Below are positions 4,446 through 62,052 of a stretch of DNA of 64,000 nucleotides, in pieces. The stretch comes from a bacterium HR16 (GTDB taxonomy: Bacteria > Armatimonadota > HRBIN16), in contig BEHS01000001.1 in the NCBI GenBank assembly GCA_002898895.1, positions 7,106-71,105 of the forward strand, given 5' to 3'. The first letter of the stretch is position 1. Every line of letters starts with the position of its first letter. Below the pieces are notes generated by a model. It worked only from the letters and a program-made list of their open reading frames with translations, searched no databases and was not told the DNA's origin. A program made the translations under genes and the position numbers.

Positions 4446-4488
4446 TCTATCCGACGAATCAAAAACTGATGAAAAGGAGGTGACTTTC

Positions 4489-4902: not shown

Positions 4903-5036
4903 GAAGGGCGAGCCTCCCGGTGAGCCAGAACGCCCCACCTGACCTCCCTGCACGCGGGGAGGAGTATGGATATTGTCTCCCTGCAAGCAGGGGGACGAGA
5001 GGGGTGGCTAACGGCTCGGCAGGAGTCTCGCCCTCC
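4903..5036. repeat. MITE-like composite hairpin element (family-2 terminal inverted repeats GGAGGGCGAGGCTCC..CCGAGCC)
   Basis: GAAGGGCGAGCCTCCCGGTGAGCC at the left end and its inverted complement CGGCTCGGCAGGAGTCTCGCCCTCC at the right end. Related copies at 31974-32110 and 39647-39773. Confidence 0.6.
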
Positions 5037-5045
5037 GAATGTTTG

Positions 5046-5071
5046 TCCTGGAGGATCGTGCTCCGTCGCGA
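5046..5071. repeat. family-3 short hairpin repeat (GGAGGATCGTGCTCCGTCGCGACC)
   Basis: Near-identical copies at 39780-39803, 61875-61897 and 61915-61937, and inverted at 23657-23681. Confidence 0.5.
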
Positions 5072-5082
5072 CCAAAAACAGA

Positions 5083-12349: not shown

Positions 12350-12363
12350 GAGTTCACCACATG

Positions 12364-12388
12364 GAGGGCGAGGCTCCGTCCGAGCCGA
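12364..12388. repeat. family-2 hairpin repeat (GGAGGGCGAGGCTCCGTCCGAGCCG), solo copy
   Basis: Same 25-mer at 46616-46640 and inverted at 62025-62052. GGCTC/GAGCC stem. Confidence 0.55.
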
Positions 12389-17064: not shown

Positions 17065-17067
17065 CCC

Positions 17068-18045: not shown

Positions 18046-18104
18046 TGCGTCCTTTCCCTTTGCTCTATGTTTACTCTGGGCGAATGCGCATTGCCGTCCA
18101 TTTT

Positions 18105-18245
18105 GTTATGCTGAACGAAGTGAAGCATCTCCGAGATTCTTCGCTTCGCTCAGAATGACAACCTTTTACTGTCGTGCTGAGCGTCAGCGAAGCATCTCAG
18201 CGTGACGATAAAACGAGATTCTTCGCTCCCCCTCAGAATGACAGG
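18105..18245. repeat. family-1 hairpin repeats (GTCATTCTGAGCGAAGCGAAGAATCTC paired with GAGATGCTTCGCT..CTCAGCATGAC), two units
   Basis: Imperfect inverted 27-nt arms. Further clusters at 22157-22294, 23423-23603, 38174-38250 and 46481-46592. Confidence 0.65.
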
Positions 18246-18398
18246 GAAATTAAACCCGTCATCCTCTACACACTTCACCCGCTGATACTCAGATTGTACC
18301 TCAATCAATACTTTTTGGTGAGCAATATTTGCGCATTCTTAAACCTCGATGTATAATGGAAATGCTTCAAGCACGCAACCTTACTGGTGGGGGAAAGC

Positions 18399-22063: not shown

Positions 22064-22156
22064 GTAAACTGTCCATCTTCCGATAATATAAGATGTCGTG
22101 CCGAAGCGACCGCTGGGTGTTTGTAGCGTTACACCTGTGGTGCGGCAGAATCTATC

Positions 22157-22294
22157 TTGTCATGCTGAGCGTTGGCGAAGCATCTCGCTCTTTTTGTCAT
22201 GCTGAACGCAGTGAAGCATCCCGGAGATTCTTCGCTCCGCTCAGAATGACAGGGAAACCAGCCCATCGTGCCATGCTGAGCGAGGCATCTCATT
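22157..22294. repeat. family-1 hairpin repeat cluster (four arms)
   Basis: TTGTCATGCTGAGCG..GAAGCATCTC and GAGATTCTTCGCTCCGCTCAGAATGACAGG. Confidence 0.6.
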
Positions 22295-23408: not shown

Positions 23409-23422
23409 TAATCCACCATTTC

Positions 23423-23603
23423 CCTGTCATTCTGAGCGCAAGCGAAGAATCTCGCTCCATCGCCACAAAAAGATGCTTCGCTCACGCTCAGCATGACAGT
23501 AAACGGTTGTCATTCTGAGCGAAGCGAAGAATCTCCAAGATGCTTCACTTCGTTCAGCATGACAAAAAGGCGGGATGCCGAGCGTCAGCGGAGCATGACA
23601 AAA
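23423..23603. repeat. family-1 hairpin repeat cluster (five arms)
   Basis: CCTGTCATTCTGAGCGCAAGCGAAGAATCTCGC ... GATGCTTCACTTCGTTCAGCATGACAAA. Confidence 0.6.
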
Positions 23604-23623
23604 AACACGCCGAACCTGCTTGG

Positions 23624-23720
23624 GAGGGTGAGGCTCCTGCCGAGCCGTTCGATTTCGGTCGCGACGGAGCGCGATCCCTCCAATCCAGTTGCGGGGAGGG
23701 CGAGGCTCTTGCCGAGCCGA
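23624..23720. repeat. family-2 / family-3 / family-2 composite hairpin repeats
   Basis: GGGAGGGTGAGGCTCCTGCCGAGCCG, inverted GGTCGCGACGGAGCGCGATCCCTCC, then GGGGAGGGCGAGGCTCTTGCCGAGCCG. Confidence 0.55.
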
Positions 23721-30983: not shown

Positions 30984-31961
30984 ATGCAGATACGCCTTTT
31001 GCGCGCGGGAGACGAACCTGCGGTTTTGACACTGTGGGACCGGTGTATGGGGGAGCAGTTCCCGCTGGATTCCGCTCTGTTCGAGCAGAACGTGCTGAGG
31101 GACGCTCACTTTGACCCGGAGGCGGTTTGGGTAGCGGAAGACAATGGGGGAAACCTGCTTGCGTATGCGCACGCGAAGGTGTGCAGAGAACCGCTGGGTT
31201 CGGCGGGTATGATGCCCGAGCAGGGGTGGATCGGCGCACTTGCTTTCCTGCCCAATGAAGAGGGCTTACAGGCGGCTCGCCTGCTCCTGCAAACTGCGCT
31301 GGAGTGGCTGAAAGCGAAGGGGAGAAAGCGGGTAAACTATGGTTCCGACCCTGCCCACTTCTTCCCCGGCGTTCCCACCGAGCAAACCCTCCATCAGCAG
31401 CTCTTGCGGGAGGCGGGGTTCACCATCGGCGAACATGTGGCGGTGGACCTGGTGCGTGAACTGGCGGACTATCGCGTGCCTGAAGAGGTGGAAGCGAATC
31501 TGCAACGCCTGCACGAGGAATACGCCATACGCTCCTGCACCCCCGATGATGTGCCTGCCCTGCTCCGCTTCTTACAGCAGGAGTTCCCCGGCAGGTGGTA
31601 CTACGAGACCGCAAAGAGGCTGGAGGTAGAGGACACCCCTCGCGACATCCTTATCCTCACGCATGGGGACGAGGTAGTGGGATTCTGCCACACTTTTCAT
31701 CGCGGCTCCAAGCGCATTGGGCCATCCATCTACTGGCGCAAGTTGTTGGGTGAAGCGTACGGCGGATTGGGACCCATCGGTCTTGCAGGGAGCACGCGGG
31801 GGAAAGGGTTGGGACTGGCTCTGCTCTGCAAAGGCGTGGAATATGTCAAGCAGCAGGGTGCACAGCGCATGGCGATTGACTGGACCGACCTGGTGGACTT
31901 CTACGGCAAAATCGGCTTCCGCGTGTGGAAGCGATACCATCCGGCGTCTCGACGGATTTAG
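30984..31961 (+). CDS. GNAT family N-acetyltransferase (tandem GNAT domains)
   Basis: Two acetyl-CoA binding Q/RxxGxG/A-like segments (LKAKGRKRV, RGKGLGLALL). Confidence 0.7.
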   Translation: MQIRLLRAGDEPAVLTLWDRCMGEQFPLDSALFEQNVLRDAHFDPEAVWVAEDNGGNLLAYAHAKVCREPLGSAGMMPEQGWIGALAFLPNEEGLQAARLLLQTALEWLKAKGRKRVNYGSDPAHFFPGVPTEQTLHQQLLREAGFTIGEHVAVDLVRELADYRVPEEVEANLQRLHEEYAIRSCTPDDVPALLRFLQQEFPGRWYYETAKRLEVEDTPRDILILTHGDEVVGFCHTFHRGSKRIGPSIYWRKLLGEAYGGLGPIGLAGSTRGKGLGLALLCKGVEYVKQQGAQRMAIDWTDLVDFYGKIGFRVWKRYHPASRRI

Positions 31962-31973
31962 CACATCCGCGTG

Positions 31974-32110
31974 GAGGGCGCACCTGCCGGCAAGCCGGTT
32001 TAGCCCCCACCCCAGCCCTTCCCGCGAGCGGTGAGGGAGCGGTTCCTCCCCCGTCCACGGGGGAGGTCAGGAGGGGGCTTCACACGGCTCGGCAGGAGCC
32101 TCGCCCTCCA
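31974..32110. repeat. MITE-like composite element (137 bp) with about 25-bp terminal inverted repeats and central CCTCCCCC-GTCCAC-GGGGGAGG hairpin
   Basis: About 85% identical to 39647-39773. TIR GGAGGGCGCACCTGCCGGCAAGCCG / CGGCTCGGCAGGAGCCTCGCCCTCC. Confidence 0.65.
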
Positions 32111-32117
32111 TGCGGGC

Positions 32118-32837
32118 TTATATTGTTATCCGCCGCCTCAACAGTCTACCCGTACCCAGCAACCCGGCTAGCATCAGCGAGAGCGTCCCTCCTTCAGGAA
32201 CCGCTTGAGGGGTAAATCCCCCTTCCGGCGTCAGGATGAAATCCTGCGAGCGTGTGCCGTTGCCGGGCAAGGGCGCGTCGTACAGAACACCGTTGAGAAC
32301 GCCCAGGCCGTTCCATGCCTGCAGATAGCTCTGCGCCAGCGTAAGGGTCAGGCTATCGATAGAGCTGCGGTTTGTGCCGTTGAACACGTTCGTCACGCGA
32401 AAGCGTCCGCTGCCGAACGGGTCCGCCCCAAAGCCATCATACAGAGCCTCCCAGATGGCTAACTGCAGGGCGGCACGACCGCGTGCATCCGTAGCGGATG
32501 GACGGTTCTTCCACAACGCCCCCATCGCCCAGTCCGCGCGGCGCCCGTCGTCCAGCGCAGTAGCAGCGGTGTTCTTTTGCACAGCATCCCACGAACCACT
32601 CGCCACCGCCTGCTTCAGGTCTACACACCATGCTTCCTTTGGCAAGGGGTATCCCCCAACATTCAGGCGCACTGCGCCGATATATACCCAACGGGTGCTA
32701 CCGTCCAGAACGGTATCGGCGGTGTAGCTGTTATCGTAATTGTGCAGGCTGATAGTAACTGCGCTGGCGCTACTGGCGAGCACAAACCCAATCACCAGGC
32801 TCAAAATCCATCTCCTCATCAGACACTCCTCCTTCAC
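32118..32837 (-). CDS. PEP-CTERM sorting-domain secreted protein
   Basis: Signal peptide. C-terminal VPEGGTLSLMLAGLLGTGRLLRRR (PEP-like motif, TM helix, Arg-rich tail). Probable start at 32819. Confidence 0.6.
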   Translation of the reverse strand: MKEECLMRRWILSLVIGFVLASSASAVTISLHNYDNSYTADTVLDGSTRWVYIGAVRLNVGGYPLPKEAWCVDLKQAVASGSWDAVQKNTAATALDDGRRADWAMGALWKNRPSATDARGRAALQLAIWEALYDGFGADPFGSGRFRVTNVFNGTNRSSIDSLTLTLAQSYLQAWNGLGVLNGVLYDAPLPGNGTRSQDFILTPEGGFTPQAVPEGGTLSLMLAGLLGTGRLLRRRITI

Positions 32838-32931
32838 GGTGTACTGGCACCCATATATGCTGCAAGAGGAGTGCCATACCTGTTGCGCACTTTGCGGGGA
32901 TTGAACGAAAAACGGTAAAGTAACGGGGATA

Positions 32932-34026
32932 CTACTCCTCCTCTACGTCCCTCTCCACCCACACGAATCGCGGCGTTTTCGCGTCGGCGAAGTTCAGCTC
33001 CACCAGCCGACGGAACAGCTGCTCCTCCATCACCTGCTCTGCGAGATCCCTTCGCAAGACGCGAAAATAGAGCTGCATCACGCGATAGTGCACCTTGCCT
33101 AACGCCAACGACCCCGTGCGCATCCCCTCGTCGGTCGCCAGCGTCTGCCCCAATACCGCCCGCGCAATCTCCTTGTTATGAAACTGCACCGCCTGCAGAT
33201 ACGCCGCGCCAACAGGTGACTTGCCCTCTAACAACTCGATCTGCACGTCCTCCGGCAGCACTACCGCCGTCTCCTGCTGGATACGGTCCAGCACCTCCAG
33301 CAGCTCTCGCCGTTCGGCTTCGGGCACATGGCGCGGAACCACCCCCTTCACCGTCGGCGCACCGAACTTCTCCAGCGACAACAGCCAGAACTTCAGCAGC
33401 AACCCCTTCGCCCACCAGTGCTTGTACGCCGCGCGCAGGTCACTGCGCCCCGTCGGCGATTCGTAACTGCCGTTGTAGGAATACACCACGAACTTCTCGG
33501 CGGGCAGAGGCTTCTCCTCACCCGCAGGCGTGCGCAGGTACAATGCCTTCAGGTTTCGGAACTCATCTGTCTCCAGCCGGAACAGGCGGGGCGGTTTGCT
33601 CTTGATGCTCTGCCATATCACCATCCCGCTCCACGGCTCCTGCTCGCACAGCGTGTAGTTAATCTCCTGCACCGAGTAGCCGTGCGCTAAGGCGTCCAGC
33701 GCGTTCAGCAGGATGCGGATCACCGAACCGCGCAGCTGCCCCAGCGCAAAGCGCACCAGCTCCGCCGCCCGTTGTGATGGCGCGTCTTCGCCACCGGGCA
33801 CGATTTGCCAGTCCGCGTCCAGCACGCCGAACTTCTTGGTGGTGAGCGCAGACTGCACCTGCGCATCGGTGAGCATCTCCTCGTACACCCGCTCTCCGCG
33901 CGTGCGAAGCAGGTCGTTCGCATCCCCTGCGCCACCAAAACGAAGGGCGGCGATGGGTTCCACCGCCGCCTGCTCCCGGTCCAGTCCGCGCCGCCTCACG
34001 CGACGCCATAGCTGCGAAAACACCAT
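32932..34026 (-). CDS. hypothetical protein, possibly phage portal-like (DUF935/Mu gp29-like)
   Basis: Weak recollection-based similarity (KFWLLSLEKFGAPTVKG region). Prophage head genes are nearby at 36978-41976. Confidence 0.3.
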   Translation of the reverse strand: MVFSQLWRRVRRRGLDREQAAVEPIAALRFGGAGDANDLLRTRGERVYEEMLTDAQVQSALTTKKFGVLDADWQIVPGGEDAPSQRAAELVRFALGQLRGSVIRILLNALDALAHGYSVQEINYTLCEQEPWSGMVIWQSIKSKPPRLFRLETDEFRNLKALYLRTPAGEEKPLPAEKFVVYSYNGSYESPTGRSDLRAAYKHWWAKGLLLKFWLLSLEKFGAPTVKGVVPRHVPEAERRELLEVLDRIQQETAVVLPEDVQIELLEGKSPVGAAYLQAVQFHNKEIARAVLGQTLATDEGMRTGSLALGKVHYRVMQLYFRVLRRDLAEQVMEEQLFRRLVELNFADAKTPRFVWVERDVEEE

Positions 34027-34051
34027 ACGCTGCCTCCTGTTACCACCGAAG

Positions 34052-35308
34052 TTATCCCAACACCACCAGCGCGTCCTCCGGCGTGGTGACCACCTGCGCC
34101 CCGCTTGCCTTCAGCCGCTCTATGATTTCCATCGCCTGCCCGCTGGTGAAGTCGCGCTCCTGCCAGTTGCAGTCCGCCAGCAGCACCCGTTTGCCCGCCC
34201 GTTGCGCCTCCTCTACCGCCTGCAGGTTCGCCAGGTTGCCGTATCCAAACGCCACCGGCGCAACGAGTATCGCATCCGCCCTCGCCAGCGCGTCGCGCAG
34301 TAGGGCAAGGCTCTCGGCTGAGATGGGCGTGAACGGCGCCTCCGTGATGACCTCTGCGCCCAGCTCCTGCGCTACCTCCTCGTCGCTATCCAGCAGGTGC
34401 AACACCCCCACCGAAAGATGCCATCCCGCCCGCGCCAGCGCGCCAATCCATCCCGCGCCCGTCCCTCCACCGCAGATCACGTGCACACGCCTGCCGTTGC
34501 CCGCCTGCGACTCCACGTGCTGTAACGTGCGTGGCAACACATGCGGACGCCCCGTCGCCGGATTCACCCGTACCCACGCATCCAGACCGAACACCCGCGC
34601 CAGCAGGGAGGGGGTAATCACCTCCGACGGCGCACCGTCCGCCACCAGCTGCCCCTGTCGAAGCACAACCAGCCTGTCGCAGAACTCTGAAGCGAGGTTG
34701 ATGTCGTGTAGCGCCGCCAGCACCGTCAACCCCTCTTCGCGATTGAGCTGGCGCAGTAGCGAAAGCGTGCCCACCTGATGCGCTACGTCTAGGTGCGTCA
34801 ACGGCTCGTCCAGAAACAGCAAGGGCGTCTCCTGCGCTAACCCACGCGCCAGCACCACCCGCTGACGCTCGCCACCGCTGAGCGTGCCGAAAGCGCGTTC
34901 CGCCAGCGACAGGCTGTCCGTGCGCTCCATCGCCCGCCGAGTCGCCTGCATGTCCTCCGCGCGCTCTTTGCCCCACCAGCCGATGTACGGCGCGCGCCCC
35001 AGCAACACCACCTCCCACGCGGTGAAACCGAACGCCACGTCCTCACGCTGGGGCACAAACGCCAGCCTCTGCGCCACATCCTTCGCCCGCAGCTGAGCCA
35101 GCGGTTGTCCGTCCAGCCACACCTGTCCCTTTTGCGGCTTTAACACTCCGCTGAGCACGCGCAACAGCGTGGACTTGCCGCTGCCGTTCGGTCCCAGCAA
35201 GCCCACAAACTCACCGCGCGAGATACACAGGTTGATGCCCTTCAATACAGGCGTTGCACCGTATCCCGCCCAGATATCTTCAGCACGTACGATTTCTGTA
35301 TTCACCAT
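34052..35308 (-). CDS. ABC transporter ATP-binding protein (FecE/BtuD-like) fused to a C-terminal about 170-aa domain of unknown function
   Basis: Walker A GPNGSGKST, ABC signature LSGGERQR, Walker B LLFLDEP, H-loop. C-terminal extension with GGGTGAG Gly-rich loop. No adjacent permease or substrate-binding genes. Confidence 0.75.
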   Translation of the reverse strand: MVNTEIVRAEDIWAGYGATPVLKGINLCISRGEFVGLLGPNGSGKSTLLRVLSGVLKPQKGQVWLDGQPLAQLRAKDVAQRLAFVPQREDVAFGFTAWEVVLLGRAPYIGWWGKERAEDMQATRRAMERTDSLSLAERAFGTLSGGERQRVVLARGLAQETPLLFLDEPLTHLDVAHQVGTLSLLRQLNREEGLTVLAALHDINLASEFCDRLVVLRQGQLVADGAPSEVITPSLLARVFGLDAWVRVNPATGRPHVLPRTLQHVESQAGNGRRVHVICGGGTGAGWIGALARAGWHLSVGVLHLLDSDEEVAQELGAEVITEAPFTPISAESLALLRDALARADAILVAPVAFGYGNLANLQAVEEAQRAGKRVLLADCNWQERDFTSGQAMEIIERLKASGAQVVTTPEDALVVLG

Positions 35309-35311
35309 TGC

Positions 35312-35340
35312 TTGACAATCCGCTTGTCCGGTGCTATGAT
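35312..35340 (+). promoter_or_regulatory. sigma-70 consensus promoter TTGACA-N17-TATGAT
   Basis: Perfect -35, 17-nt spacer, -10 TATGAT. About 75 nt upstream of the HAF-protein start. Confidence 0.5.
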
Positions 35341-35416
35341 TGCTCCGCCAGCTCGGCATAAGTTTCGCCCGTTCCCACCCGGGCGAGCCTCACTGTGAGA
35401 AAGGAGTGGAAACGAA

Positions 35417-36916
35417 ATGGTTCGCCTATCAACCCTTTACGTTTTCGCCTGCGCGTTCTCCTTCGCGCTGAGCCTCTCTGCCGTCCACGCTCAGTATACC
35501 ATCACCGACCTGGGCGCGATCACCGCTAACGGGCAAAGCCGCGGCTACGGCATCAACAACCTCGGCGAAGTCGCCGGATGGTCGGATGGACACGCCTTCT
35601 TCTGGACAGGCGGTGTGCTCATAGACCTCGGCGTGCTGTCGGGTACCGCCAGCGAAGGGCGCGATGTCAACGACCTCGCACAGGTGGTCGGCTGGAGCGA
35701 TGCCGCACAGGCGCGCCATCCCTTTATCTGGAAAGACCTCAACGGCAACCGCCTCGCCGACCCGGGCGAGATGGTGGACCTGCGTCCCATCCCCAATACC
35801 TGGCAGGGCAGAGCGTACGGCATCAACAACGCCGGGCACGTGGTAGGGTGGTCTGCTATCAACCCCGATGGGGTGTACCACGCCTTCCGCTGGAGTTACA
35901 ACACAGGCGGCTGGTGGGACTGGTTTGACCTCGGCAACATCACCGGCAATCCCGACGAAATCAGCCTCGCTAACGACATCAACAACCTCGGACAGGTGGT
36001 GGGAGGCTCCGGCTCGGCGGGCAGCCGACGCGCTTTCCGTACACAACCCTACGCCGCTATCAACCCGCTCACCGATGCCCTGCCCTATCTGCCCAACGGC
36101 ACAACCGCCGAAGCCTTCGGCATTAACGACCGGGGTCAGGTAGTGGGCTTCTCCAACACGCGCGTGGGAACCAGCACCCTCACCCGTCCCGTACTGTGGG
36201 AGGGCAGTTCTGTTATCGATCTGGGCACACTGGGAGGCAATATCGGACGCGCGTACGGCATTAACAACCTCGGGCACGTCGTGGGACACTCCTATCTGTC
36301 GGACAACATCTCCTTACGCGCCTTCCTGTGGGTGAACGGTGTGCTTCGCGACCTCAACGACCTCCTGCCGCCAGGTTCCGGCTGGGTGCTCAACGAGGCG
36401 CGCGCCATCAACAACTTCGGACAGATTACCGGCTACGGCGCACACAACGGCATTACTCGCGCGTTCCTGATGACACCTGTGCCTACCACCGTCACCGTAA
36501 ATCTGGACGGCTACACGGGCGATTACTCCAGATTGCCCCTGCAGGTGGAGGTGCGCTCGACAACAGGGGAGACTCTGCTTACGTTCAGCCCAGCACTGAA
36601 CGCCGACGGTACGTTTCCCCTCACCCTCACGCCGACGACCTATACCCTCGCCTTCAAGGCAGACCGCTCCCTGCGCCGCGTGCTGACAGGCATCACCGTG
36701 CCGGCGGGAACCCTGGCGGTGAACCTCGTCAACGGCGACGCCGACGGCGATAACGAGGTCAGCCTGTTCGATTTCGGTAAACTGGTCGGCGCGTTCGGTA
36801 AGCTGGATGGAGAGGAGGGCTTTGAACCCACCGCCGACTTCGACGGCGACGGCGAAATCAGCCTGTTCGATTTCGGCATCCTGGTGCGTAACTTCGGGGA
36901 AGTAGGAGATGAATAA
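35417..36916 (+). CDS. secreted HAF-family repeat protein with C-terminal carboxypeptidase-regulatory-like and dockerin-like domains
   Basis: Signal peptide. Six or more GINNxGxVVGWS HAF repeats. C-terminus NGDADGDNEVSLFDFGKLV...DFDGDGEISLFDFGILVRNFGEVGDE paralogous to the 15028-17064 C-terminus. Confidence 0.7.
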   Translation: MVRLSTLYVFACAFSFALSLSAVHAQYTITDLGAITANGQSRGYGINNLGEVAGWSDGHAFFWTGGVLIDLGVLSGTASEGRDVNDLAQVVGWSDAAQARHPFIWKDLNGNRLADPGEMVDLRPIPNTWQGRAYGINNAGHVVGWSAINPDGVYHAFRWSYNTGGWWDWFDLGNITGNPDEISLANDINNLGQVVGGSGSAGSRRAFRTQPYAAINPLTDALPYLPNGTTAEAFGINDRGQVVGFSNTRVGTSTLTRPVLWEGSSVIDLGTLGGNIGRAYGINNLGHVVGHSYLSDNISLRAFLWVNGVLRDLNDLLPPGSGWVLNEARAINNFGQITGYGAHNGITRAFLMTPVPTTVTVNLDGYTGDYSRLPLQVEVRSTTGETLLTFSPALNADGTFPLTLTPTTYTLAFKADRSLRRVLTGITVPAGTLAVNLVNGDADGDNEVSLFDFGKLVGAFGKLDGEEGFEPTADFDGDGEISLFDFGILVRNFGEVGDE

Positions 36917-36927
36917 CTGACTGAACG

Positions 36928-36956
36928 CCCCTCTCCCGTCTGCGACGGGAGAGGGG
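36928..36956. terminator. GC-rich hairpin CCCCTCTCCCGTC-TGC-GACGGGAGAGGGG
   Basis: 13-bp perfect stem with 3-nt loop 11 nt after the stop. Same stem sequence as the hairpin at 17080-17107. Confidence 0.45.
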
Positions 36957-36977
36957 GCAGCCGACGAGGGCAGCTTC

Positions 36978-37295
36978 CTACCGGCTCCACACCGCCACCT
37001 TCACTGCGGGGGCGTTTCCTATTTTCAGCGTGACCACCCTCCGCACCGTGTAGCCTGCTCCGTCGCGGGAGATACTGTCGCCCTCGTTCAGCACCTCGTC
37101 TGCCGCTGTGACCCCTGCCCACATCGGACGGCTGAAACCCAGCAGGTCGTTGTCGGTAAACAGACTGCGCAACAGCCCGCTCGTCGCCACAAATACCACC
37201 ATGCGCACCGTGCGCGTGCCGTTCACTGTCACATCCTCACCGTGCCGCTTCACCAGCGACCTCAGCCGTTCTGCTCGCGTCGACATCTGCCTCAC
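36978..37295 (-). CDS. phage head-tail adaptor-like protein
   Basis: Size and position at the distal end of the head module. Weak recollection-based similarity. Confidence 0.3.
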   Translation of the reverse strand: MRQMSTRAERLRSLVKRHGEDVTVNGTRTVRMVVFVATSGLLRSLFTDNDLLGFSRPMWAGVTAADEVLNEGDSISRDGAGYTVRRVVTLKIGNAPAVKVAVWSR

Positions 37296-37715
37296 CTACC
37301 AGCCCAGCATCGACTGCTCAGAAACCTGCCGCTCCCGATGGCGCGTGGTGGATTGCGTGTATATCGGCTTCAGGAACGGCATGAGCCTCGCCCATCCACG
37401 CTGAATCAGACCGTACGGGTCGCCCAAATCGGCACGCGACTGAGGGCTTTCACCCACTCGTACACCGCCCGCCTCGAACGCCTCTGTTGCTCCTTCCTCG
37501 CGCAACCGCTGTGCCAGAAACTCACCCGCGATAATCTCCGTCGCGCCCCGACTGAGCACCGTATCCAGCGTGCTATCCGCCAGCGCGTCCGATGACAGCG
37601 TGTACTCTATCACAGGAACCAGGTCGGCAATGAGCGCATCGATCTGCGCGTCGTAAGCGGTGGACGATACCGCTGCCGTGCGCTTCACCGCCTCTCGTGT
37701 GACCGTAATCGCCAT
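37296..37715 (-). CDS. phage gp6-like head-tail connector protein
   Basis: Typical size. N-terminal MAITVTREAVKRTAAVSSTAYDAQIDALIADLVPVIE pattern resembles gp6-like connector proteins. Confidence 0.4.
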   Translation of the reverse strand: MAITVTREAVKRTAAVSSTAYDAQIDALIADLVPVIEYTLSSDALADSTLDTVLSRGATEIIAGEFLAQRLREEGATEAFEAGGVRVGESPQSRADLGDPYGLIQRGWARLMPFLKPIYTQSTTRHRERQVSEQSMLGW

Positions 37716-37728
37716 CTGCCACCTCCCC

Positions 37729-37932
37729 CTACGCCTGCTGCACTACCTGCCACTTGCGGAAGTTCTCGGCGATGTCGTCCAGCTTAACGGCGCGGAAGTC
37801 CCATACGTCGCCTTCCTGCACGGCAACCCCGAACAGCTTCTGGATAGCTGTAGCGGAGACAGATACTCGCTCTCCGGTGTCTATGTCCACGAAGACGATG
37901 TTCGTTCCAGCGGTCTTCACGTATGCTCTCAT
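37729..37932 (-). CDS. hypothetical phage-module protein
   Basis: Small ORF co-directional within the phage block. Confidence 0.3.
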   Translation of the reverse strand: MRAYVKTAGTNIVFVDIDTGERVSVSATAIQKLFGVAVQEGDVWDFRAVKLDDIAENFRKWQVVQQA

Positions 37933-37935
37933 GGC

Positions 37936-38244
37936 TCACCACTCCTGTACTTGCTTGATGATGTGTTCACGTATCGCTTCTTCGATGGCGTAAACGAGCG
38001 CAACGTCCACCTTCAACCTGTCCGCTAACCTCTCTCTCGTAGCCTGCGGTAACCGTAGCGCCCGCTCTTCCAGCCATCGCAGTACCAGCTGTTTCAGAAC
38101 TCTCTTCACCGTTGTCTCTCCTGATAGTCTGTCAGGTGTGATTCTCGTGGCTGTGGCGAGGCGGTCTTGCCTTGCTGTCATTCTGAGCGAAGCGAAGAAT
38201 CTCGTGTTATCGCCACTCCGAGGTGCTTCGCTGATGCTCAGCAT
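37936..38244 (-). CDS. hypothetical phage-module protein (N-terminal part of ORF overlaps a family-1 repeat, so true start probably internal)
   Basis: First about 30 codons are the translated family-1 repeat (SISEAPRSGDNTRFFASLRMT). Likely starts near VKRVLKQLV. Confidence 0.25.
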   Translation of the reverse strand: MLSISEAPRSGDNTRFFASLRMTARQDRLATATRITPDRLSGETTVKRVLKQLVLRWLEERALRLPQATRERLADRLKVDVALVYAIEEAIREHIIKQVQEW

Positions 38245-38250
38245 GACAAG
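38174..38250. repeat. family-1 hairpin repeat unit
   Basis: GCTGTCATTCTGAGCGAAGCGAAGAATCTCG ... AGGTGCTTCGCTGATGCTCAGCATGACAAG. Confidence 0.6.
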
Positions 38251-38305
38251 GGTGCCAAACTACTCTGCCTGCATCTAAACAATCAGGTTCGACGCGCTCG
38301 CGTCA

Positions 38306-39379
38306 CTAGAGTTGAGTCGCTACCAGCGTGCCCCTGAAGGTCCCCGCAGCAGCGCCAGTGTTCTTCACCTTCACGCGGAAGTTACGAGAACCGTATATCT
38401 GCATGATAGGCGACGACACATAGTACCGAACCACAGCATCTGTCGTGGCATCGGTGCTTGTGCCGTACCACACTACCTGCCAGTTGCTGCCGTCTACCTG
38501 CGCTTCTACCCATGCACTGAACGGCTGGTCTCCCATGAAGTGCGCCTGGATGTGACACTGCTCGGTGTAGAATGCGCGGCTGCTTCCTGTACCCACCGAA
38601 CCCGCAGCGAGAGCGGAGAAGGTGTCCGTTACGCTCTGGATGGAACCCAGGCTGGAAGTGCTGGGGACAGAAGCGAACGGCGTATTCGTGAGCCTGACGG
38701 GAAGTGCCATTGCGTCCACATGATGCCCCAGTGCCCCAGGTGGAATGATATCCGCCAGCTGATATGCGGTCACACGATGCACCTTCAGCGTACTGGTTCC
38801 CGCAAGACCAGCAAGCCGAACGCGGAACGGTCCATCGGGAATACCGCTTTCCACATACCGATACACTTCATTGCGGGTGTTCAGGCTGTTGATAGCGCGA
38901 TACGCCCAGATGGCTTCACCAAACCCGACGTAGATGGTCGCCAGCCTGTAGGTGTTGTTGGCTGCACCGACGCTCATGCTGGTCTGGTCTGAAACCACAC
39001 CACCAGCACTCATCCGCGCATCCATGTAGCTGCTGGTGGTACCTGTTGCGCCCCACTCCACCAGGTTGCCGTCGTCGGTATAGAAACCGAAGCGGAAGTT
39101 ATCGGTAGATGCGCGGGCAGTCATGGTCTCCACCACTTCTATCAGGCAGGGCGGCTGGAAACTCTGCTTGCTGAGCAGCACGACGCCGCTGGTGATGGAT
39201 AGCTCGCCGTTCAACGGAATGGGACTGCCTGATACCACTTCCCACTTGTCGGCGTTCAGCGCACCGTTGAAGTCGTCACTCAGCCAGTGCAGAACCTGTC
39301 CACCCGCTACCGGAAAGGGCGTGTCACTCCGCACCGCCTGCCATCGCCCCATCGTATCTGTGAAGCGCAACCTCCTCAC
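38306..39379 (-). CDS. phage-module structural protein of unknown function (357 aa)
   Basis: Large ORF immediately downstream of the major head gene block. No recognisable motifs. Confidence 0.4.
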   Translation of the reverse strand: MRRLRFTDTMGRWQAVRSDTPFPVAGGQVLHWLSDDFNGALNADKWEVVSGSPIPLNGELSITSGVVLLSKQSFQPPCLIEVVETMTARASTDNFRFGFYTDDGNLVEWGATGTTSSYMDARMSAGGVVSDQTSMSVGAANNTYRLATIYVGFGEAIWAYRAINSLNTRNEVYRYVESGIPDGPFRVRLAGLAGTSTLKVHRVTAYQLADIIPPGALGHHVDAMALPVRLTNTPFASVPSTSSLGSIQSVTDTFSALAAGSVGTGSSRAFYTEQCHIQAHFMGDQPFSAWVEAQVDGSNWQVVWYGTSTDATTDAVVRYYVSSPIMQIYGSRNFRVKVKNTGAAAGTFRGTLVATQL

Positions 39380-39621
39380 TCCTTTCTGCTTGTCGCCCGG
39401 CGTGCATGGTTCAACTTCACGCAGGCAAGAGTTTCTTTCAGAGCCTGAAGTGCCTCAGTGTTTCCCCGCACCGCCTGCTCCAGCCGTGTCAGATGCTCCC
39501 GAAGCGTCTGCTCCTGTGCCTGAATGATGCGCTCCAGCGCGCGCAGCGTCAACCGCGCAAACGCCCATTGCGCCGACACCATCGCCCCGATGAGCGTCAA
39601 AACCTGTACTCCGATCTCCAT
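39376..39621 (-). CDS. small membrane-anchored coiled-coil protein (phage module)
   Basis: ATG at 39621 (MEIGVQVLTLIGAMVSAQWAFA TM helix, then heptad-like region). Longer track ORF upstream is translated MITE repeat. Confidence 0.35.
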   Translation of the reverse strand: MEIGVQVLTLIGAMVSAQWAFARLTLRALERIIQAQEQTLREHLTRLEQAVRGNTEALQALKETLACVKLNHARRATSRKE

Positions 39622-39646
39622 GATGCACCTCCTCTGCCCCCTGTCT

Positions 39647-39773
39647 GGAGGGCGAACCTGCCGGTGAGCCGATTTAGCCCCCACCGCGCGCAGGGAGAGA
39701 GCGGTTCCTCCCCCGTCCACGGGGGAGGTCAGGAGGGGATATTTCGTACGGCTCGGCGGGAGCCTCGCCCTCC
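39647..39773. repeat. MITE-like composite element (second near-identical copy)
   Basis: About 85% identity to 31974-32110 including TIRs and the central GGGGGAGG hairpin. Followed by a family-3 repeat at 39780-39803. Confidence 0.65.
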
Positions 39774-39835
39774 CCCATTGGAGGGTCGTGCTCCGTCGCG
39801 ACCACAAACGCACCCGACAGGTTCACCGCGAATCG

Positions 39836-40762
39836 CTAGCTCGCGTTACTGCCGTAAGCAGTCTGCCACAAACCGTAGCCCACGCCGTAACGCGCTCGCG
39901 CGCCGTAATACACCACGTCCCGCAGGAACACACTCTCGCTCACCGACGGGTCCTCCAATGCCGAGAACTCCACCGGCACATCCGACCGCTCCTGCAGAAT
40001 CACCGCACGCACCGCCCGGCTGGTGTCCAGCACAAACCACTGATTGCCTGTGATATACGGGCTGACCACCAGCCTCAGCGCACCTTGCAGCACGTTGCGA
40101 TACGGTGTGTTGTCACCCGTGCCCGCTTTGACCACCACCACCTGCGACTCCAGCAGCTCCATCGCCGCCCAGCGCAGGCGTGGACCCACCAGCAACGTAT
40201 CCGGCAGGATGCCCAGCGGCACGCCCTGATCGTCCTTGAACAGCATCATGCTGGAGATAGCGCTCTGCAGGCTGTCGGGATTCAGCGGTTGGGTGGTGAC
40301 GTTGCTCTGTGTGCCGCTCTCGCCCTCCGAGTGTGCGCTGGAGAAGAGCGGTTGACCGTCGTAGCACGTCTGGCTGAACCCGTCCAGTAACGCTTTCACC
40401 ACCAGATAGTCCTTGTGCCGTGCCGCCTCGCGCCCCAAATCCTGCACCCGCAGTCGGATGGCTCCAATCTGTTCGTCCTCCAGAGCGCGTCTCTCTACCG
40501 CTATTGTGCTCTCCCACACCGTGTCCTGAATGGTGTAGTTATATGCCCGTAAGCCCTTCGGCATGCGCTCGTCCACAAACTCGCGCATCGCAGGCACACT
40601 GCCCAGCCACCCGTACTTCTGCACAGGCAGCTCGGTCTGAATCACCGTTGCAATCTGCGGATAAATCGCCGACTCCACCTGCCGTCGATACGCCTCAAAA
40701 AAGTCTGCACGCAAACCCGCCTCCAGCAAGGCGCCCATTTCGCTCCGTGTAATCGCTGGCAT
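39836..40762 (-). CDS. Mu-like prophage major head subunit (gpT family)
   Basis: Length about 305 aa and conserved gpT-like blocks (YPQIATVIQTELPVQKYGWLG..., QGVPLGILPDTLLVGP, NQWFVLD). Confidence 0.7.
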   Translation of the reverse strand: MPAITRSEMGALLEAGLRADFFEAYRRQVESAIYPQIATVIQTELPVQKYGWLGSVPAMREFVDERMPKGLRAYNYTIQDTVWESTIAVERRALEDEQIGAIRLRVQDLGREAARHKDYLVVKALLDGFSQTCYDGQPLFSSAHSEGESGTQSNVTTQPLNPDSLQSAISSMMLFKDDQGVPLGILPDTLLVGPRLRWAAMELLESQVVVVKAGTGDNTPYRNVLQGALRLVVSPYITGNQWFVLDTSRAVRAVILQERSDVPVEFSALEDPSVSESVFLRDVVYYGARARYGVGYGLWQTAYGSNAS

Positions 40763-40776
40763 TGTCTCTCCTCCTC

Positions 40777-41190
40777 TTACCGCACCGCGTTATCGATACG
40801 AATGCGTGCTTGCGTCGCCGAAAGCACCTCCACCACGTAACCCACCAGCTGGTTGTTGGTGGAAGTGGTGGTCAGCGTGTTGTCGTCCGCTGCGTACATC
40901 GCCTGCCCCACGCTTGCCTGCGTGAAGCCGCTCCCGTTATACACGTAAGTGCCACTCTTCCACACGCGCACCGACCTCGCGCCCGCCGCACCGCCTGTGT
41001 TGTCCACACCTTCAAACGCTACTCCCACGAACACATCGCTGCTTGTGCCGCTGCGCGATGGGTAGGCGTAACCGTCACTGCGCACGCTCACCAGCGCACC
41101 TTTGTAAATCACCGTGTTCGCGCCCACCTTGTAACTCACCAGCTCGCCCGGCTTGTCCTGTGGGTCGTACGCGCTCGTCAACGCTGCCAT
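40777..41190 (-). CDS. phage head decoration/cement-like protein (DUF2190-like)
   Basis: Gly/Ala-rich 137-aa protein directly upstream of the major head gene. Typical GALV..G..Y motif pattern. Confidence 0.4.
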   Translation of the reverse strand: MAALTSAYDPQDKPGELVSYKVGANTVIYKGALVSVRSDGYAYPSRSGTSSDVFVGVAFEGVDNTGGAAGARSVRVWKSGTYVYNGSGFTQASVGQAMYAADDNTLTTTSTNNQLVGYVVEVLSATQARIRIDNAVR

Positions 41191-41193
41191 CTC

Positions 41194-41976
41194 CTATCGC
41201 CTCCTTCCTTCCGACAGATAACGGGCAATCTGCTCGGGGGACAGGTCGCCCCAGTACTTGCGCAGGAACGCCTCCTCTTCCACGCTCAGCGTGTGCTCCT
41301 GCTCGCCTGCAGGTGCGATCTCGCCAAAACGCACAGTCGGCGGCAACGCCTCCACAAAACGGGCGAACACCTCCGCCACGCTCGCGCTACCGCCTGCAAA
41401 GGTCACTGCCTGCGTGCCCTGCAGGAGCAGTGTCTTCGCCATCTCGCGCGTCGCCGGCGTCAGCTTCCCCTGCCTAAGCCATCGCTGCAACGTCTCCTCT
41501 ACCTGTCGCTCGCGCAGGGCAAACTCTGCCGCCTCCGCCCGCCGACGCAACGCCTCCATGTCCTGTTCCAACGCGGTCACCTCCGTCAAAAGTATCTCGC
41601 CCGAAAAAGCCACCGCGCCCGCACTCAGCAGGCGCGCATCCGCCACACGCGGAGTCGCGGTCACCGACACCTCCACAATCCGCTTCAGGTCGGGCGTCAC
41701 CGCCACGCTGATGCCGCGAATGCCCAGCCGTTTCAGCAACGCCTCCGCTTCCGGCAGCAGGGTCAGCCGCCCGAACAGCTCCTTGCCCCGTCGCCACAAC
41801 CGCTTCAGCTCTCCAATCTGCCATCCCTGCGACAGGTGCTCCACCATCAGCGGAACCGGCGCGGTGAAGCCCTCCACCAGCGATTGCAACTGCTCCTCGC
41901 CCACTTCCAGCCCCTTGTCGGGATAGGAGCCGGCTTCAAACAGCTTCGCCTCTCGCTCCACTTCCAACGCGCTCAC
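41194..41976 (-). CDS. Mu-like prophage protease/scaffold (gpI-like)
   Basis: Position directly upstream of decoration and major head genes. Central coiled-coil (ALEQDMEALRRRAEAAEFALRERQVEETLQRW) typical of scaffold. Confidence 0.45.
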   Translation of the reverse strand: MSALEVEREAKLFEAGSYPDKGLEVGEEQLQSLVEGFTAPVPLMVEHLSQGWQIGELKRLWRRGKELFGRLTLLPEAEALLKRLGIRGISVAVTPDLKRIVEVSVTATPRVADARLLSAGAVAFSGEILLTEVTALEQDMEALRRRAEAAEFALRERQVEETLQRWLRQGKLTPATREMAKTLLLQGTQAVTFAGGSASVAEVFARFVEALPPTVRFGEIAPAGEQEHTLSVEEEAFLRKYWGDLSPEQIARYLSEGRRR

Positions 41977-43501: not shown

Positions 43502-44307
43502 GAGGTGCGTGGCGGATGAACACCCTCTACTACGGCGATAACCTCGACATCCTGCGTAAACACCTGCAGGATGAAACAATAGACCTCATCTACCTCGACC
43601 CGCCCTTCAACAGCGCACGTGACTATAACGTGCTCTTCCGCGAGCAGTCGGGTGAACCCGCGCAGGCGCAAATCAAAGCCTTCACCGACACATGGCAATG
43701 GAGCGAACGCACCTACGTGCAGTTCTGCGAGGAGTGTCCCAAACCCGCCCTTGTGGAACTGCTACAGGGCTTCGTCAAAACACTGGGGCGCAACGATGTC
43801 ACCGCCTATCTGGTGATGATGGCGCCCCGACTGGTGGAACTGCACCGCGTGCTCAAACCCACCGGAAGCCTCTACCTGCACTGCGACCCCACCGCCAGCC
43901 ATTACCTCAAGGTGATGCTCGACGTCATCTTCGGAGCGCGTAACTTCAAAAACGAGATCGTGTGGAAACGCACCAGCGCACATAGTGGGGCAAAAAGATG
44001 GGGACCTGTTCATGACACCGTTCTGTTCTATACAAAGAGCGATACATACACGTGGAACAAAGTTTTCAGCCAGTTTGATGCTAAGTACGTCGAGGAGTTC
44101 TACAGATACGAGGACGATAGAGGCAGGTATCAGCTGGTAGACCTTACAGGAGCGGGAGTTCGCTATGGGGAGTCAGGTCAGCCTTGGAAAGGGGTGAACC
44201 CCACTGCTGTTGGCAGGCATTGGGCAGTTCCGCAAAAGCTGGTAGAGGAAGTGGTTGGGAGGGAACGCGCGTCGCAATTAAGTGTGCAAGAGAAACTGGA
44301 TGCACTA

Positions 44308-45492
44308 GTACTTGACCTCTCATCAATCTTGTGGTATAATCTCGCTAATTTGCTAACAGGAGTGCAACCATGCGAAAATACAGCGTCCAATTGACCGAGC
44401 AAGAACACGAGCAACTGACCGACATCATCCGCAAAGGCAAAGCACCTGCCAGACAGATCACCCGCGCCCACATCCTGCTCAAAGCACACAACGGCGAACG
44501 CTACGCCGACATCGCCCACGCTGTGGGGGTCAGCGAGGTCACCGTCACCACCGTCTGTCGGGAGTTCCAGACGCTGCGCACCGACGCCATCTATCGCAAA
44601 CGCCCCAATCGCGTGTATGCCCGCCGACTGGACGGCGCAGCAGAAGCGCAGTTAATTGCTCTGGCTTGCAGTGCGCCACCGGAGGGACGGGCTTCGTGGA
44701 CGATGCAGTTGCTGGCAGACCGGATGGTGCAGTTGGAGGTGGTGGAGACCATCTCCGCCGAGACAGTGCGTCGTACGCTGAAAAAAACGACCTTAAGCCT
44801 TGGCAGAAGCGTTTCTACTGCATCCCCCCAGAGGCAAACGCGGCGTTTGTAGCGGGGATGGAGGACGTGTTAGACGTGTATCAGCGTGCTTACGACCCCC
44901 ACAGACCGGTGTTATGCCTGGATGAGTTGCCGGTGCAGTTAGTGGGTGAAGTGTTCACGCCGTTGCCGATGGAGCGAGGCAAGCCGAAGCGCGAGGATTA
45001 CGAGTATAAGCGGGAGGGCACAGCGAGCGTGTTCATGGTGTTTGAGCCGCTGGCAGGCAAGCGTTATCTGTTTGTGCGCTCCCGTCGCACAGCGTGTGAT
45101 TGGGCGGAGGTGATGCAGCAGATAGCAGACGAGTTATATCCTGAAGCGGAGCGGATAGTGATGGTGATGGACAATCTGAACACGCACGATGTGGCGTCGC
45201 TGTATAAGCGTTTTGTGCCTTCGGAGGCGTGGCGATTGCGTCAGCGTTTTGAGATACACCACACACCGGTTCACGGTAGTTGGTTAAACGTGGCGGAGAT
45301 CGAGTTAAGCGTGTTAGTGCGTCAGTGTTTGGAACGTCGGATAGGGGATATAGGGGCGTTAGACCGGGAGGTACAGGCGTGGGCGCGGTTGCGCAATGAG
45401 GCGTGCGCTTGTGTGGACTGGCAGTTCACGACGGCGGACGCCCGCATCAAGTTGAAGCGTCTCTACCCAAAGATTGAGGAGAGGTGATGTAC
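44308..45492 (+). mobile_element. IS630/Tc1-mariner family insertion sequence (1185 bp) with TA target-site duplication
   Basis: Imperfect 23-bp terminal inverted repeats GTACTTGACCTCTCATCAATCTT / AAGATTGAGGAGAGGTGATGTAC flanked by TA (44306-44307 and 45493-45494). Two overlapping transposase ORFs. Confidence 0.85.
44370..45487 (+). CDS. IS630-family transposase (orfA HTH plus orfB DDE, joined by programmed -1 frameshift)
   Basis: Slippery A7 run A_AAA_AAA_C at 44782-44788. orfA ...LKKTTLSLG in frame 0, and -1 frame continues [18 protein letters not shown]... with the DDE region. Confidence 0.75.
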
Positions 45493-46480
45493 TAGAAGAG
45501 GCAGGCTATATTGTATGGCCCGAGAAAGGGCGAGTGCCCCGCTACAAACGGTATCTGGACATGAACCCCGGTAACCTCATTCAGGACGTTATCACCGACA
45601 TCAACCCGATTTCCTCTCAAGCCCGTGAGCGTCTTGGCTATCCCACACAGAAACCTATCGCCCTGCTGGAGCGAATCATTCTCGCGTCCAGTAACGAGGG
45701 CGACGTAGTGCTGGACCCCTTCTGCGGATGCGGAACCGCCATCGTCGCCGCCCAGAAGTTGAAACGCCACTGGGTCGGCATCGACATCACTCATCTTGCC
45801 ATTGCGCTCATCAAATACCGTCTCGCCGACATGTTTGACCTGCGTGAGGGCAAAGACTACCTCGTTGTCGGCGAACCCACCACCGTCGAGGACGCCCGTG
45901 CCCTTGCCCATCATGACCGCGACGAGTTTCAGCGGTGGGCAATCGGGCTTATCCCCCGTGCCCGTCCCTATCAAGACAAAAAAGGCGCGGACACCGGCAT
46001 CGATGGCGTGCTCTTTTTCAAAGACGACCCAGACGACCCCAAGAAGGTGGTGATTCAGGTCAAAAGCGGGCACGTGGGTGTGAAGGACATTCGCGACTTT
46101 CGTGGGGTGATGGAGCGCGAGAAAGCCACTCTCGGCTTGTTCGTTACCCTTGACGAACCCACCCGCGCCATGCAGACCGAAGCGGAGAGCGTCGGCTTCT
46201 ACGTCACCCCGCTGGGCAAACTGCACCTGCCTCGCCTGCAGATTCGCACCGTCGAGCAGCTCCTGCGCGGCGAGGGTTTCCAGATACCCGGTGCGGCGAT
46301 GCTGATGGGCGTCTCCCGTGCCGAGCGCGTGCAAGAACAGTTCCGCCAGGGCGAGCTGGAGATGTAATCACGCGGACAGTGTTCACCTGCCCTGTCTTGT
46401 CCGGCAGCCGATGCTATAGACCCTGTACTGTAGAGCGCCAAGGCACGACTGCTTGAATGGGAGCAGACCGTTTCCACTTA

Positions 46481-46592
46481 CTTGTCATTCTGAGCGAAGC
46501 GAAGAATCTCGTTGTATCGCCACCCTGAGATGCTTCACTTCGTTCAGCATGACAACAAAATCCTGTCATTCTGAGCGAAGCGAAGAATCTCA
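46481..46592. repeat. family-1 hairpin repeat cluster (three arms)
   Basis: CTTGTCATTCTGAGCGAAGCGAAGAATCTCG / GAGATGCTTCACTTCGTTCAGCATGACAAC / CCTGTCATTCTGAGCGAAGCGAAGAATCTC. Confidence 0.6.
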
Positions 46593-46615
46593 AATGGCAA
46601 CGCGACCATCCTTCT

Positions 46616-46640
46616 GGAGGGCGAGGCTCCATCCGAGCCG
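46616..46640. repeat. family-2 hairpin repeat, solo copy
   Basis: GGAGGGCGAGGCTCCATCCGAGCCG. Confidence 0.5.
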
Positions 46641-61874: not shown

Positions 61875-62052
61875 TGGAGGGACGCGCTCCGTCGCATCCG
61901 CAAAATCAACCTGTTGGAGGGACGCGCTCCGTCGCGTCCTGAATACAGCGGTCACGATGGAGCGTGACCCTCCAGCAGGGCAATCGGTGAGAGTACAGTT
62001 ACAGCCGCAGATACCTGATCGGATGGACGGCTCGGACGGAGCCTCGCCCTCC
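61875..62052. repeat. cluster of family-3 (x2 direct, x1 inverted) and family-2 (inverted) hairpin repeats
   Basis: GGAGGGACGCGCTCCGTCGC at 61875 and 61915. GGTCACGATGGAGCGTGACCCTCC at 61950. CGGCTCGGACGGAGCCTCGCCCTCC at 62028. Confidence 0.55.

Follow-up and report, generated by a model that had tools for sequence, protein, structure and literature searches.

Repetitive extragenic palindromes (REPs) are palindromic sequences of 20-40 nt whose hairpin bears a GT[AG]G tag at its foot (PMC3733652, PMC6006769). They often form head-to-head (HH) dimers with 20-100 bp between the units and lie for the most part between unidirectional or convergent genes (PMC3733652), and the inverted pairs have been described as REPINs (REP doublets forming hairpins; Bertels & Rainey 2011, PMC3116915) and as 'HH dimers' (Di Nocera et al. 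2013, PMC3733652). REP sub-families differ by compensatory changes in the stem, and mobilisation by REP-associated tyrosine transposases (RAYTs) has been proposed (PMC3733652, PMC6006769). The published degenerate tags are GYAG, GYRG, GTRG, GTMG and GTGG, none of which has a G at position 2 (PMC3733652). Here, we describe a 25-nt repeat, designated F2, and three composite elements built from it, in a 64-kb stretch of the genome of the armatimonadote bacterium HR16 (contig BEHS01000001.1, positions 7,106 to 71,105), referred to below as the window.

An initial annotation had recognised three MITE-like (miniature inverted-repeat transposable element) composites of about 130 bp with inverted arms of about 25 nt. 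Elements of this form are present at the three sites (c1, c2 and c3; Table 1), and each is an inverted pair of a self-folding, REP-like unit enclosing terminator-like hairpins. Their arms are independent units and no target-site duplication surrounds them, and they are better labelled REP/REPIN/BIME-like (bacterial interspersed mosaic element) than MITEs, that is, as REP/REPIN-like mosaic elements. We consider it reasonably probable that they are REPIN/BIME-like head-to-head dimers of a REP-like unit, with RAYT-like mobilisation and a role at gene 3' ends.

Structure of the repeat unit

The F2 unit comprises, from 5' to 3', a GGAG tag, the half-stem GGC-GA-GGC, a TCCY loop, the half-stem GCC-GA-GCC and a final G. 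Its borders are sharp, and in 163 oriented copies conservation ends abruptly on both sides. A relaxed pattern search yielded 288 distinct units, on which the tag and pair counts are based. The tag is GGAG in 275 units, GTAG in 7, GCAG in 4 and GAAG in 2. A tandem G.A is invariant, pair 8-21 being G.A in 288/288 units and pair 9-20 being A.G in 285/288, while the adjoining stem pairs 10-19 and 11-18 covary through the combinations GG/CC, AC/GT, AG/CT, GC/GC, CG/CG, AT/AT and CA/TG. This covariation was recounted in the 41 units lying outside the constraint of the search patterns. Both pairs are 95% paired in this subset, with 10-19 occurring as AT (18), GC (15), CG (3) and GT (3), and 11-18 as GC (28), CG (8), TA/AT (2) and GT (1). 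Slid registers are only 10-66% paired, and the pairs of the true register show four to five pair types each. The minimum-energy fold of the consensus in ViennaRNA contains pairs 5-24, 6-23 and 7-22, a 2x2 GA loop, pairs 10-19, 11-18 and 12-17, and a TCCY tetraloop. The covarying pairs, together with the consensus fold, therefore define the unit as a short hairpin with a tetranucleotide tag at its foot. Pairing of the tag with the CTCC loop was also considered and is not selected; units with a GTAG tag retain the CTCC loop.

Two variants of this design occur in the window. F2L (GGAGGGCGAACCTCCCGGTGAGCC), the left arm of the composites, is an AC/GT compensatory variant of F2. The F3 unit (GGAGGGTCGYGCTCCGTCGCGACC) has the tag, length and loop of F2 and a fully paired stem; the F3 stems found in the window, GGTCGYG, GGACGCG and GGTCACG, are all three compensated.

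Organisation of the composites

The three composites each contain two units, with tags pointing outward, around 84-93 nt of C-rich/G-rich terminator-type hairpins. Aligned over 25 nt, the F2L arm and the right arm, F2R, form 20 Watson-Crick pairs and one wobble, and they keep fixed mutual mismatches (A.C, C.C, C.A and G.G). The interior of c1 consists of an outer stem, AGCCCCC/GGGGGCT, and two C-rich/G-rich hairpins, and the interiors of c1, c2, c3 and a metagenome locus (L135) represent one design, in which an outer C-run/G-run stem surrounds two hairpins of this kind. A long branched hairpin is predicted for all three composites on both strands (z -3.3 to -6.5).

Identity between c1 and c2, first put at about 85%, is 80.6% when gap columns are counted (112/139) and about 90% over ungapped columns. 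The two have in common a 63-nt interior stretch at 89% identity, which has an exact 40-mer at its core and includes the central GC hairpin (CCTCCCCCGTCCACGGGGGAGG); this hairpin, which the initial annotation had noted, is found within the window only in these two copies. The third composite had been called a more diverged copy with the same arms, and this description holds: c3 retains arms and architecture, and its interior is barely alignable to those of c1 and c2 (62% and 54% identity, where shuffled sequence reaches at most 55% and 60%). A common interior is confined to c1 and c2, and the composite as a whole is thus low-copy; the dispersed part is the 25-mer.

Orthologues of two composites were recovered from metagenomes, that of c1 (L139) being 98.5% and that of c3 (L143) 99% identical. 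In the latter comparison one inner hairpin of c3 (4975-4996) is flipped relative to its counterpart at 1141-1162 of L143, reading GTCTCCCTGCAAGCAGGGGGAC in the window and GTCCCACTGCTTGCAGGGGGAC in L143, although the strains are 99% identical overall; this is the pattern that would be expected of template switching at a palindrome. Logan short-read contigs of the window's own strain (L121-L123, L172-L174) all end inside c1 or c2, at the shared 40-mer, and exact-protein look-ups for the genes neighbouring c1 and c2 returned only such same-strain Logan contigs, broken inside the elements.

Distribution of units in the window

Up to three mismatches, the canonical 25-mer GGAGGGCGAGGCTCCGTCCGAGCCG has 8 matches in the window, where 100 dinucleotide-preserving shuffles give an expectation of 0.00. 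These are the three right arms and five solo copies (12363, 23623, 23695, 46616 and 62028), all within 1-2 nt of the solo 25-mers first listed. A structural scan for tag, stem and loop found 13 units against 0.17 expected. The window holds in total 11 F2-type arms and 6 F3 units, every one of them intergenic, and five of the seven element sites lie between convergent genes, in keeping with the placement originally reported; the 12363 and c2 sites lie between co-directional genes. The similarity among copies is not one of low-complexity GC runs; the arms have sharp borders and a specific sequence. A short family-3 hairpin had been said to follow each composite; an F3 unit follows c2 and c3, and none follows c1. 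Apart from the 12363 copy, the solo units occupy convergent spacers that also hold F1, F3 or F4 repeats (Table 1).

Table 1. Composite elements, repeat units and associated features, in window coordinates unless another locus is named
Feature	Position	Strand	Description
Composite c1	31973..32109	+	137 nt; arms F2L 31973-31997 (degenerate) and F2R 32085-32109
Composite c2	39647..39773	+	127 nt; arms F2L 39647-39671 and F2R 39749-39773
Composite c3	4903..5036	+	134 nt; F2L-type arm 4903-4927 (tag GAAG) and F2R 5012-5036
Solo F2	12363..12387	+	60-nt spacer between ribF (11429-12349) and TPR gene (12410-14935)
F2-F3-F2 mosaic, recurrent	23623..23719	+	F2 23623-23647 (+), F3 23657-23680 (-), F2 23695-23719 (+)
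Solo F2	46616..46640	+	followed by F4 Y-shaped hairpin module at 46703-46796
Solo F2	62028..62052	-	exact reverse complement of the 12363 copy
F3 unit	5050..5073	+	shortly after c3; GGAG tag, 7-bp stem, CTCCGT loop
F3 unit	39780..39803	+	shortly after c2
Three F3 units	61876..61973		61876-61899 (+), 61916-61939 (+), 61950-61973 (-)
F1 family	18098-18250, 22156-22256, 23418-23600, 38154-38250, 46478-46620
F4 module	46703-46796; L135 2338-2428		outer stem AACCTCTCCCC/GGGGGTTAGGTT around two C-rich/G-rich hairpins
IS630-family insertion sequence	44305-45495		helix-turn-helix open reading frame 44370-44852, DDE_3 open reading frame 44666-45487; 32-nt terminal inverted repeats, TA on each side

Composite c1 lies between a convergently oriented acetyltransferase gene (30984-31961, +) and a gene for a 239-residue protein (32118-32837, -). 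The c3 composite with its F3 unit is placed between a convergent zinc-ribbon gene (4351-4869, +) and a CDGSH gene (5083-5292, -), and c2 with its F3 unit between the stop codon of gpT (Mu-like major head; 39836-40762, -) and the ATG at 39621 of a gene for an 81-residue protein. The latter spacer is part of a Mu-like head gene cluster (32118-41976) encoding a portal, an ABC ATPase, the major head protein gpT and a cement protein, the gene order of which is kept in relatives (L183-L186). The cluster also shows a match to Mu gpI that is weak and below threshold (E 4.5e-4; 20.3 bits, with a cut-off of 25.2). Across Armatimonadota the identity of gpT tracks that of NusA, falling from 94-88% to about 66% and then to about 55%. 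By its sequence the cluster looks vertically inherited and possibly domesticated, and not like a recent prophage.

The units also enter mosaics. The F2-F3-F2 mosaic is 88.8% identical over 98 nt to positions 12880-12976 of L147, a contig from the metagenome of L143, at a different locus. The stems of the F3 trio at 61876-61973 are compensatory variants of one another, and the last two units form a tags-outward dimer. The F4 module, whose DNA fold has z = -5.3, stands alone in the window and in L135 constitutes the spacer of an F2L/F2R dimer; 3' of the window copy, the sequence CCTCGCCTCC at about 46806 may be a decayed right arm. The F1 repeats (TGTCATTCTGAGCGAAGCGAAGAATCTC), a second family, occur mostly as imperfect inverted pairs, only in intergenic DNA and often beside F2 or F3, and were found also in L118 (metagenome-assembled genome (MAG) SKYG40) and in L147. 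The motif GTAGCCGCAGGCTT... is present at two intergenic sites of the window (46664-46685 and 60462-60485) and may represent a further GTAG-tagged hairpin family. Unconnected with these families, 39-nt tandem repeats are found in a coding region (57797-58185), and paired dockerin-like repeats (GDxDGDxEVxLFDFG; 16882-17065 and 36734-36917) form the C-termini of the proteins encoded at 15028-17064 and 35417-36916.

Occurrence of F2 among bacteria

A scan of one genome per species with GGAGGGCGAGGCTCCNNCCGAGCCG identified at least 120 loci. Among the matches listed, most are in Planctomycetota; the others carry depositor labels of Verrucomicrobiota, Kiritimatiellae, Victivallales, Acidobacteriota, Ignavibacteria (on a 1.76-Mb contig), Armatimonadota (Chthonomonas, Fervidibacter), Nitrospirales, Anaerolineae, Binatia, Thermodesulfobacteriota, Alphaproteobacteria and Alcaligenaceae. 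Complete genomes that bear F2 include OY970325.1 (Armatimonadetes), CP197413.1 and OY970228.1 (Planctomycetaceae). The exact unit is additionally carried by 13 IMG/VR viral contigs (L158-L170). Across the scanned loci, units within 300 nt of each other are arranged with tags outward in 55 cases, in tandem in 36 and with tags inward in none (p = 6e-17), and the spacers of the dimers, of about 0 to 246 nt, are unrelated in sequence between genomes. Using a crude gene caller, we placed 48 F2 sites between unidirectional, 21 between convergent and 6 between divergent genes, against a background of 294, 87 and 84; on this crude gene calling, divergent spacers are depleted of F2 (6/75; p = 0.012 by count and 0.0005 by length), and a like pattern is reported for REPs (PMC3733652).

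Dimers with the architecture of the composites were found in metagenomes, in which a scan for F2L and F2R separated by 70-100 nt returned 34 loci. A 114-nt family, F2L-interior-F2R with a conserved interior, is present at 15 or more distinct loci in other organisms. In this family (L124-L157; for example L125 221-334) a second inverted repeat, GAGTGTGTTCGGAAA ... TTTCCGAACACCCTC, surrounds the F2L-64 nt-F2R dimer, and there is a TTGACA-like box 10-15 nt downstream. L147 carries a dimer with an 18-nt spacer, followed by an F3 and another F2 unit. A blastn comparison of c2 with a plasmid collection gave no match.

Turnover at element sites

The element sites were compared with syntenic loci of relatives, anchored either on NusA (84-96% identity; homologues labelled Armatimonadota) or on gpT (90-93% identity; one homologue labelled Chthonomonadetes). 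At the c3 site, the NusA-anchored relatives possess a 39-41-nt spacer with a single plain hairpin. At the c2 site, the gpT-anchored relatives have a 65-75-nt spacer with one CCCCTCTCC...GGAGAGGGG hairpin, which is followed by a T-run in L183 and by a shorter T-rich stretch in L184, and the site equivalent to c1 in L185 holds a canonical terminator. Close armatimonadote relatives thus show a plain hairpin at all three composite sites, with a clear T-tract in two of six (L183 and L185). The 12363 site is a 5-6-nt gap or an overlap of genes in L179, L181 and L182 and an unrelated 65-nt spacer in L175. No F1, F2 or F3 unit is present in about 105 kb of syntenic DNA from relatives with NusA identity of 84-93% or gpT identity of 90-93%, including 56 kb from the gpT-anchored relatives. 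The relative with 96% NusA identity carries the remnant of an F2 composite at another site (L175 5866-5935). The plain hairpins and the lack of units in relatives lead to the conclusion that the families expanded in the window's sub-lineage, where they now occupy terminator positions. Thus, the gain of the elements is lineage-specific and falls at terminator positions.

Proposed mobilisation and role at gene 3' ends

In the model that we favour, F2 units would be non-autonomous, and an HUH/Y1 (RAYT-like) enzyme encoded elsewhere would move them in trans in the form of single-stranded hairpins, a mechanism that would leave no target-site duplication. A whole dimer could also be copied as one unit, as is suggested by c1 and c2, the only composites of this lineage with a common interior, and by the 114-nt family in other organisms. 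The elements would land and persist at gene 3' ends, where the large hairpin, when transcribed, would replace the native terminator or 3'-end stabiliser. The simple hairpins of the relatives at the composite sites give positional support to the terminator idea, and we infer that the composites, when transcribed, may act as terminators or 3'-end stabilisers.

Several observations weigh against this model. No Y1- or RAYT-like open reading frame (ORF) was found in 1.45 Mb of F2-bearing DNA (186 loci and the window, about 8 kb per genome), in which six-frame ORFs were searched using phmmer with E. coli RayT (from L171), an IS200-like query, and regular expressions for the HUH motif. A genome usually holds only one RAYT, and locus-level sampling is thus a weak test. 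When ORFs within 1.5 kb of F2 were clustered, no gene family recurred beside the unit, the clusters consisting only of generally abundant families such as proteins with a prepilin-like N-terminus. The GGAG tag differs from the defining GT[AG]G, and the 25-mer is near-identical across many phyla, unlike the reported REP-RAYT pairs, which co-evolve vertically. A lone 25-mer is thermodynamically unexceptional (z about 0), and support for the fold of the unit is consequently drawn from covariation rather than from energy. A search for filled and empty sites with identical flanks yielded no clean pair, the relatives being too diverged in the spacers, so that insertion is deduced from diverged relatives. 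Finally, the terminator role proposed in the initial annotation is borne out only in part: relatives carry a hairpin at the composite sites, and the composite hairpins are not followed by a canonical T-tract, the one marginal site being at 32100-32116, at the right edge of c1. Likewise, a scan of the region for canonical terminators found 9 terminator-like sites against 7.7 expected, and hence no enrichment.

A more far-reaching proposal, possible but in our view rather doubtful, is that F2 constitutes an undescribed GGAG-tagged REP superfamily moved by a horizontally travelling copying system, in which units may home to sites flanking native terminator hairpins and inverted pairs capture the terminators. 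If this were so, the retention of a 25-nt unit almost letter for letter across at least 10 phyla would imply sequence-specific copying by a RAYT-like or other enzyme, and c1, c2 and c3 would be snapshots of inverted pairs capturing a terminator as their spacer and replacing the native one.

The position of the elements also invites an explanation that involves no mobility, namely that host selection has maintained hairpins acting as terminators, mRNA 3'-end protectors or protein-binding sites, which arose by local duplication, gene conversion or recombination. The composites do stand in for the simple hairpins of relatives at three sites (with a clear T-tract in L183 and L185), their interior hairpins match the native terminators of those relatives in being C-rich/G-rich, divergent (promoter) regions are depleted of F2, and no transposase was found. 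A near-identical 25-mer in many phyla would nonetheless be difficult to explain unless some system copied or recognised it by its sequence, and the sharp limits and fixed tag of the unit, the strict polarity of its dimers, the occurrence of units at different sites in close relatives with lineage-specific expansion, and the lack of a T-tract all render this explanation unlikely.

A second alternative retains mobility and replaces the enzyme: the units could be copied by some other structure-specific nuclease or recombinase, or by a phage- or plasmid-borne system. This would account for both the missing RAYT and the cross-phylum spread, and it agrees with the lack of a Y1 gene in the 1.45 Mb, with the viral contigs that carry exact F2, and with the location of c1 and c2 in the Mu-like head gene cluster; CGTC-tagged REPs have likewise been reported without a dedicated transposase (PMC3733652). 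We nevertheless give it little credence, as no candidate gene recurs near F2 and a tetranucleotide tag at the foot of a hairpin is the signature of HUH/Y1 substrates (PMC6006769).

A classical MITE, a deletion derivative of about 130 bp of a DDE-transposase insertion sequence (IS) with the same 25-bp terminal inverted repeats, would move by cut-and-paste and leave target-site duplications. The size of 127-137 bp, the inverted ends of about 25 bp, the lack of coding capacity, the intergenic position and the 114-nt family with the same arms at no fewer than 15 other loci all fit this description, and the window does contain an IS630-family IS. We rejected this IS as the parent element because its terminal inverted repeats (TAGTACTTGACCTC...) are unrelated to the F2 arms; it is the only transposase element in the window, and the autonomous element whose existence the MITE label had implied was not found there. 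The IS interrupts an N6/N4 DNA methylase-Mrr gene, the two parts of which lie at 43516-44394 and 45474-46367, with a PIN-domain gene as neighbour. The direct repeats predicted by the same label are lacking around c1-c3, and around 38 aligned composites as well. None of the ORFs lying between F2 arms resembled a transposase: among outward-tagged units 300-2500 nt apart, a single one-gene case (L005) was found, which by eye encodes an ordinary small enzyme. Moreover, the arms are self-folding units with covarying stems, found singly, in tandem and as dimers whose spacers vary widely in length, and F2L and F2R retain conserved mismatches against each other, observations that make a MITE origin very improbable.

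A structured small-RNA gene, to which the strong fold on either strand might point, is the least credible account of all, given that both strands fold equally, that conservation between strains is no higher in the elements than in their flanks, that the elements are absent from the same loci in relatives, and that the window has no match in Rfam 15 at gathering score (at permissive thresholds the best hits were miRNA hairpins scoring 22 bits, far from the required 95).

Comparison with known systems

In the usual description, a REP/REPIN system is lineage-specific and is passed on vertically along with its RAYT. F2 departs from this picture in its GGAG tag and in occurring near-unchanged from Planctomycetota to Armatimonadota, Ignavibacteria and Proteobacteria, and, with no transposase linked to it, can serve as a concrete case in which to test how repeats of this type spread and are maintained. 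Moreover, at three terminator positions in this lineage the elements take the place of ordinary hairpins, in one case after a major-capsid-like gene, which connects a selfish-looking repeat, directly and testably, with the formation of transcript 3' ends. The units also break short-read assemblies and spawn spurious ORFs, and a good description of them should aid the annotation of MAGs. A full-text search of the literature with 15-mers returned nothing, and nothing was found in the supplements of the two main REP surveys.

F2 and F3 share with REPs each structural and distributional property other than the sequence of the tag. Like the GTAG-superfamily REPs, they are units of about 25 nt, each a short imperfect hairpin with a tetranucleotide tag at its 5' foot, they form compensatory sub-families, and they are extragenic and multi-copy, at unidirectional or convergent sites without target duplication. 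They differ from that superfamily in that the F2 tag is GGAG (95%), with GTAG in only 7/288 units, and in the invariant tandem G.A, the near-unchanged sequence across phyla and the lack of a cognate RAYT in the DNA searched. The tag, the cross-phylum near-identity and the missing transposase bar the filing of F2 as a plain member of the REPs. The CGTC-tagged REPs (Di Nocera et al. 2013) are comparable in being tagged hairpins that form HH dimers, occur in several phyla and have no dedicated transposase found, and are distinguished by their tag, by a stem of 8-9 bp whose first positions are A-T, and by a CCA tail.

Bacterial MITEs (Correia/NEMIS, RUP, ERIC and Nezha) resemble the composites in their length of about 130 bp, inverted ends of about 25 bp, non-coding character, location beside genes and robust transcript hairpin, whereas the composites have no TA or other target duplication and no parent IS that could be found, and their ends are autonomous hairpin units that also occur solo. 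Rho-independent terminators are found at gene 3' ends, and the composites lie exactly where relatives have one, but the composites are without a U-tract, much larger, branched and of repeated sequence. With the BIMEs of E. coli the composites have in common the inverted heterodimer of REP subtypes, Y and Z there and F2L and F2R here, and the mosaic clustering with other short motifs, in this case F3, F1 and F4, although the sequences are unrelated and the spacers here hold whole terminator-like hairpins. Finally, as in REPINs and HH dimers, F2 is present both as singletons and as tags-outward dimers, with 20-100-bp spacers and long hairpins.

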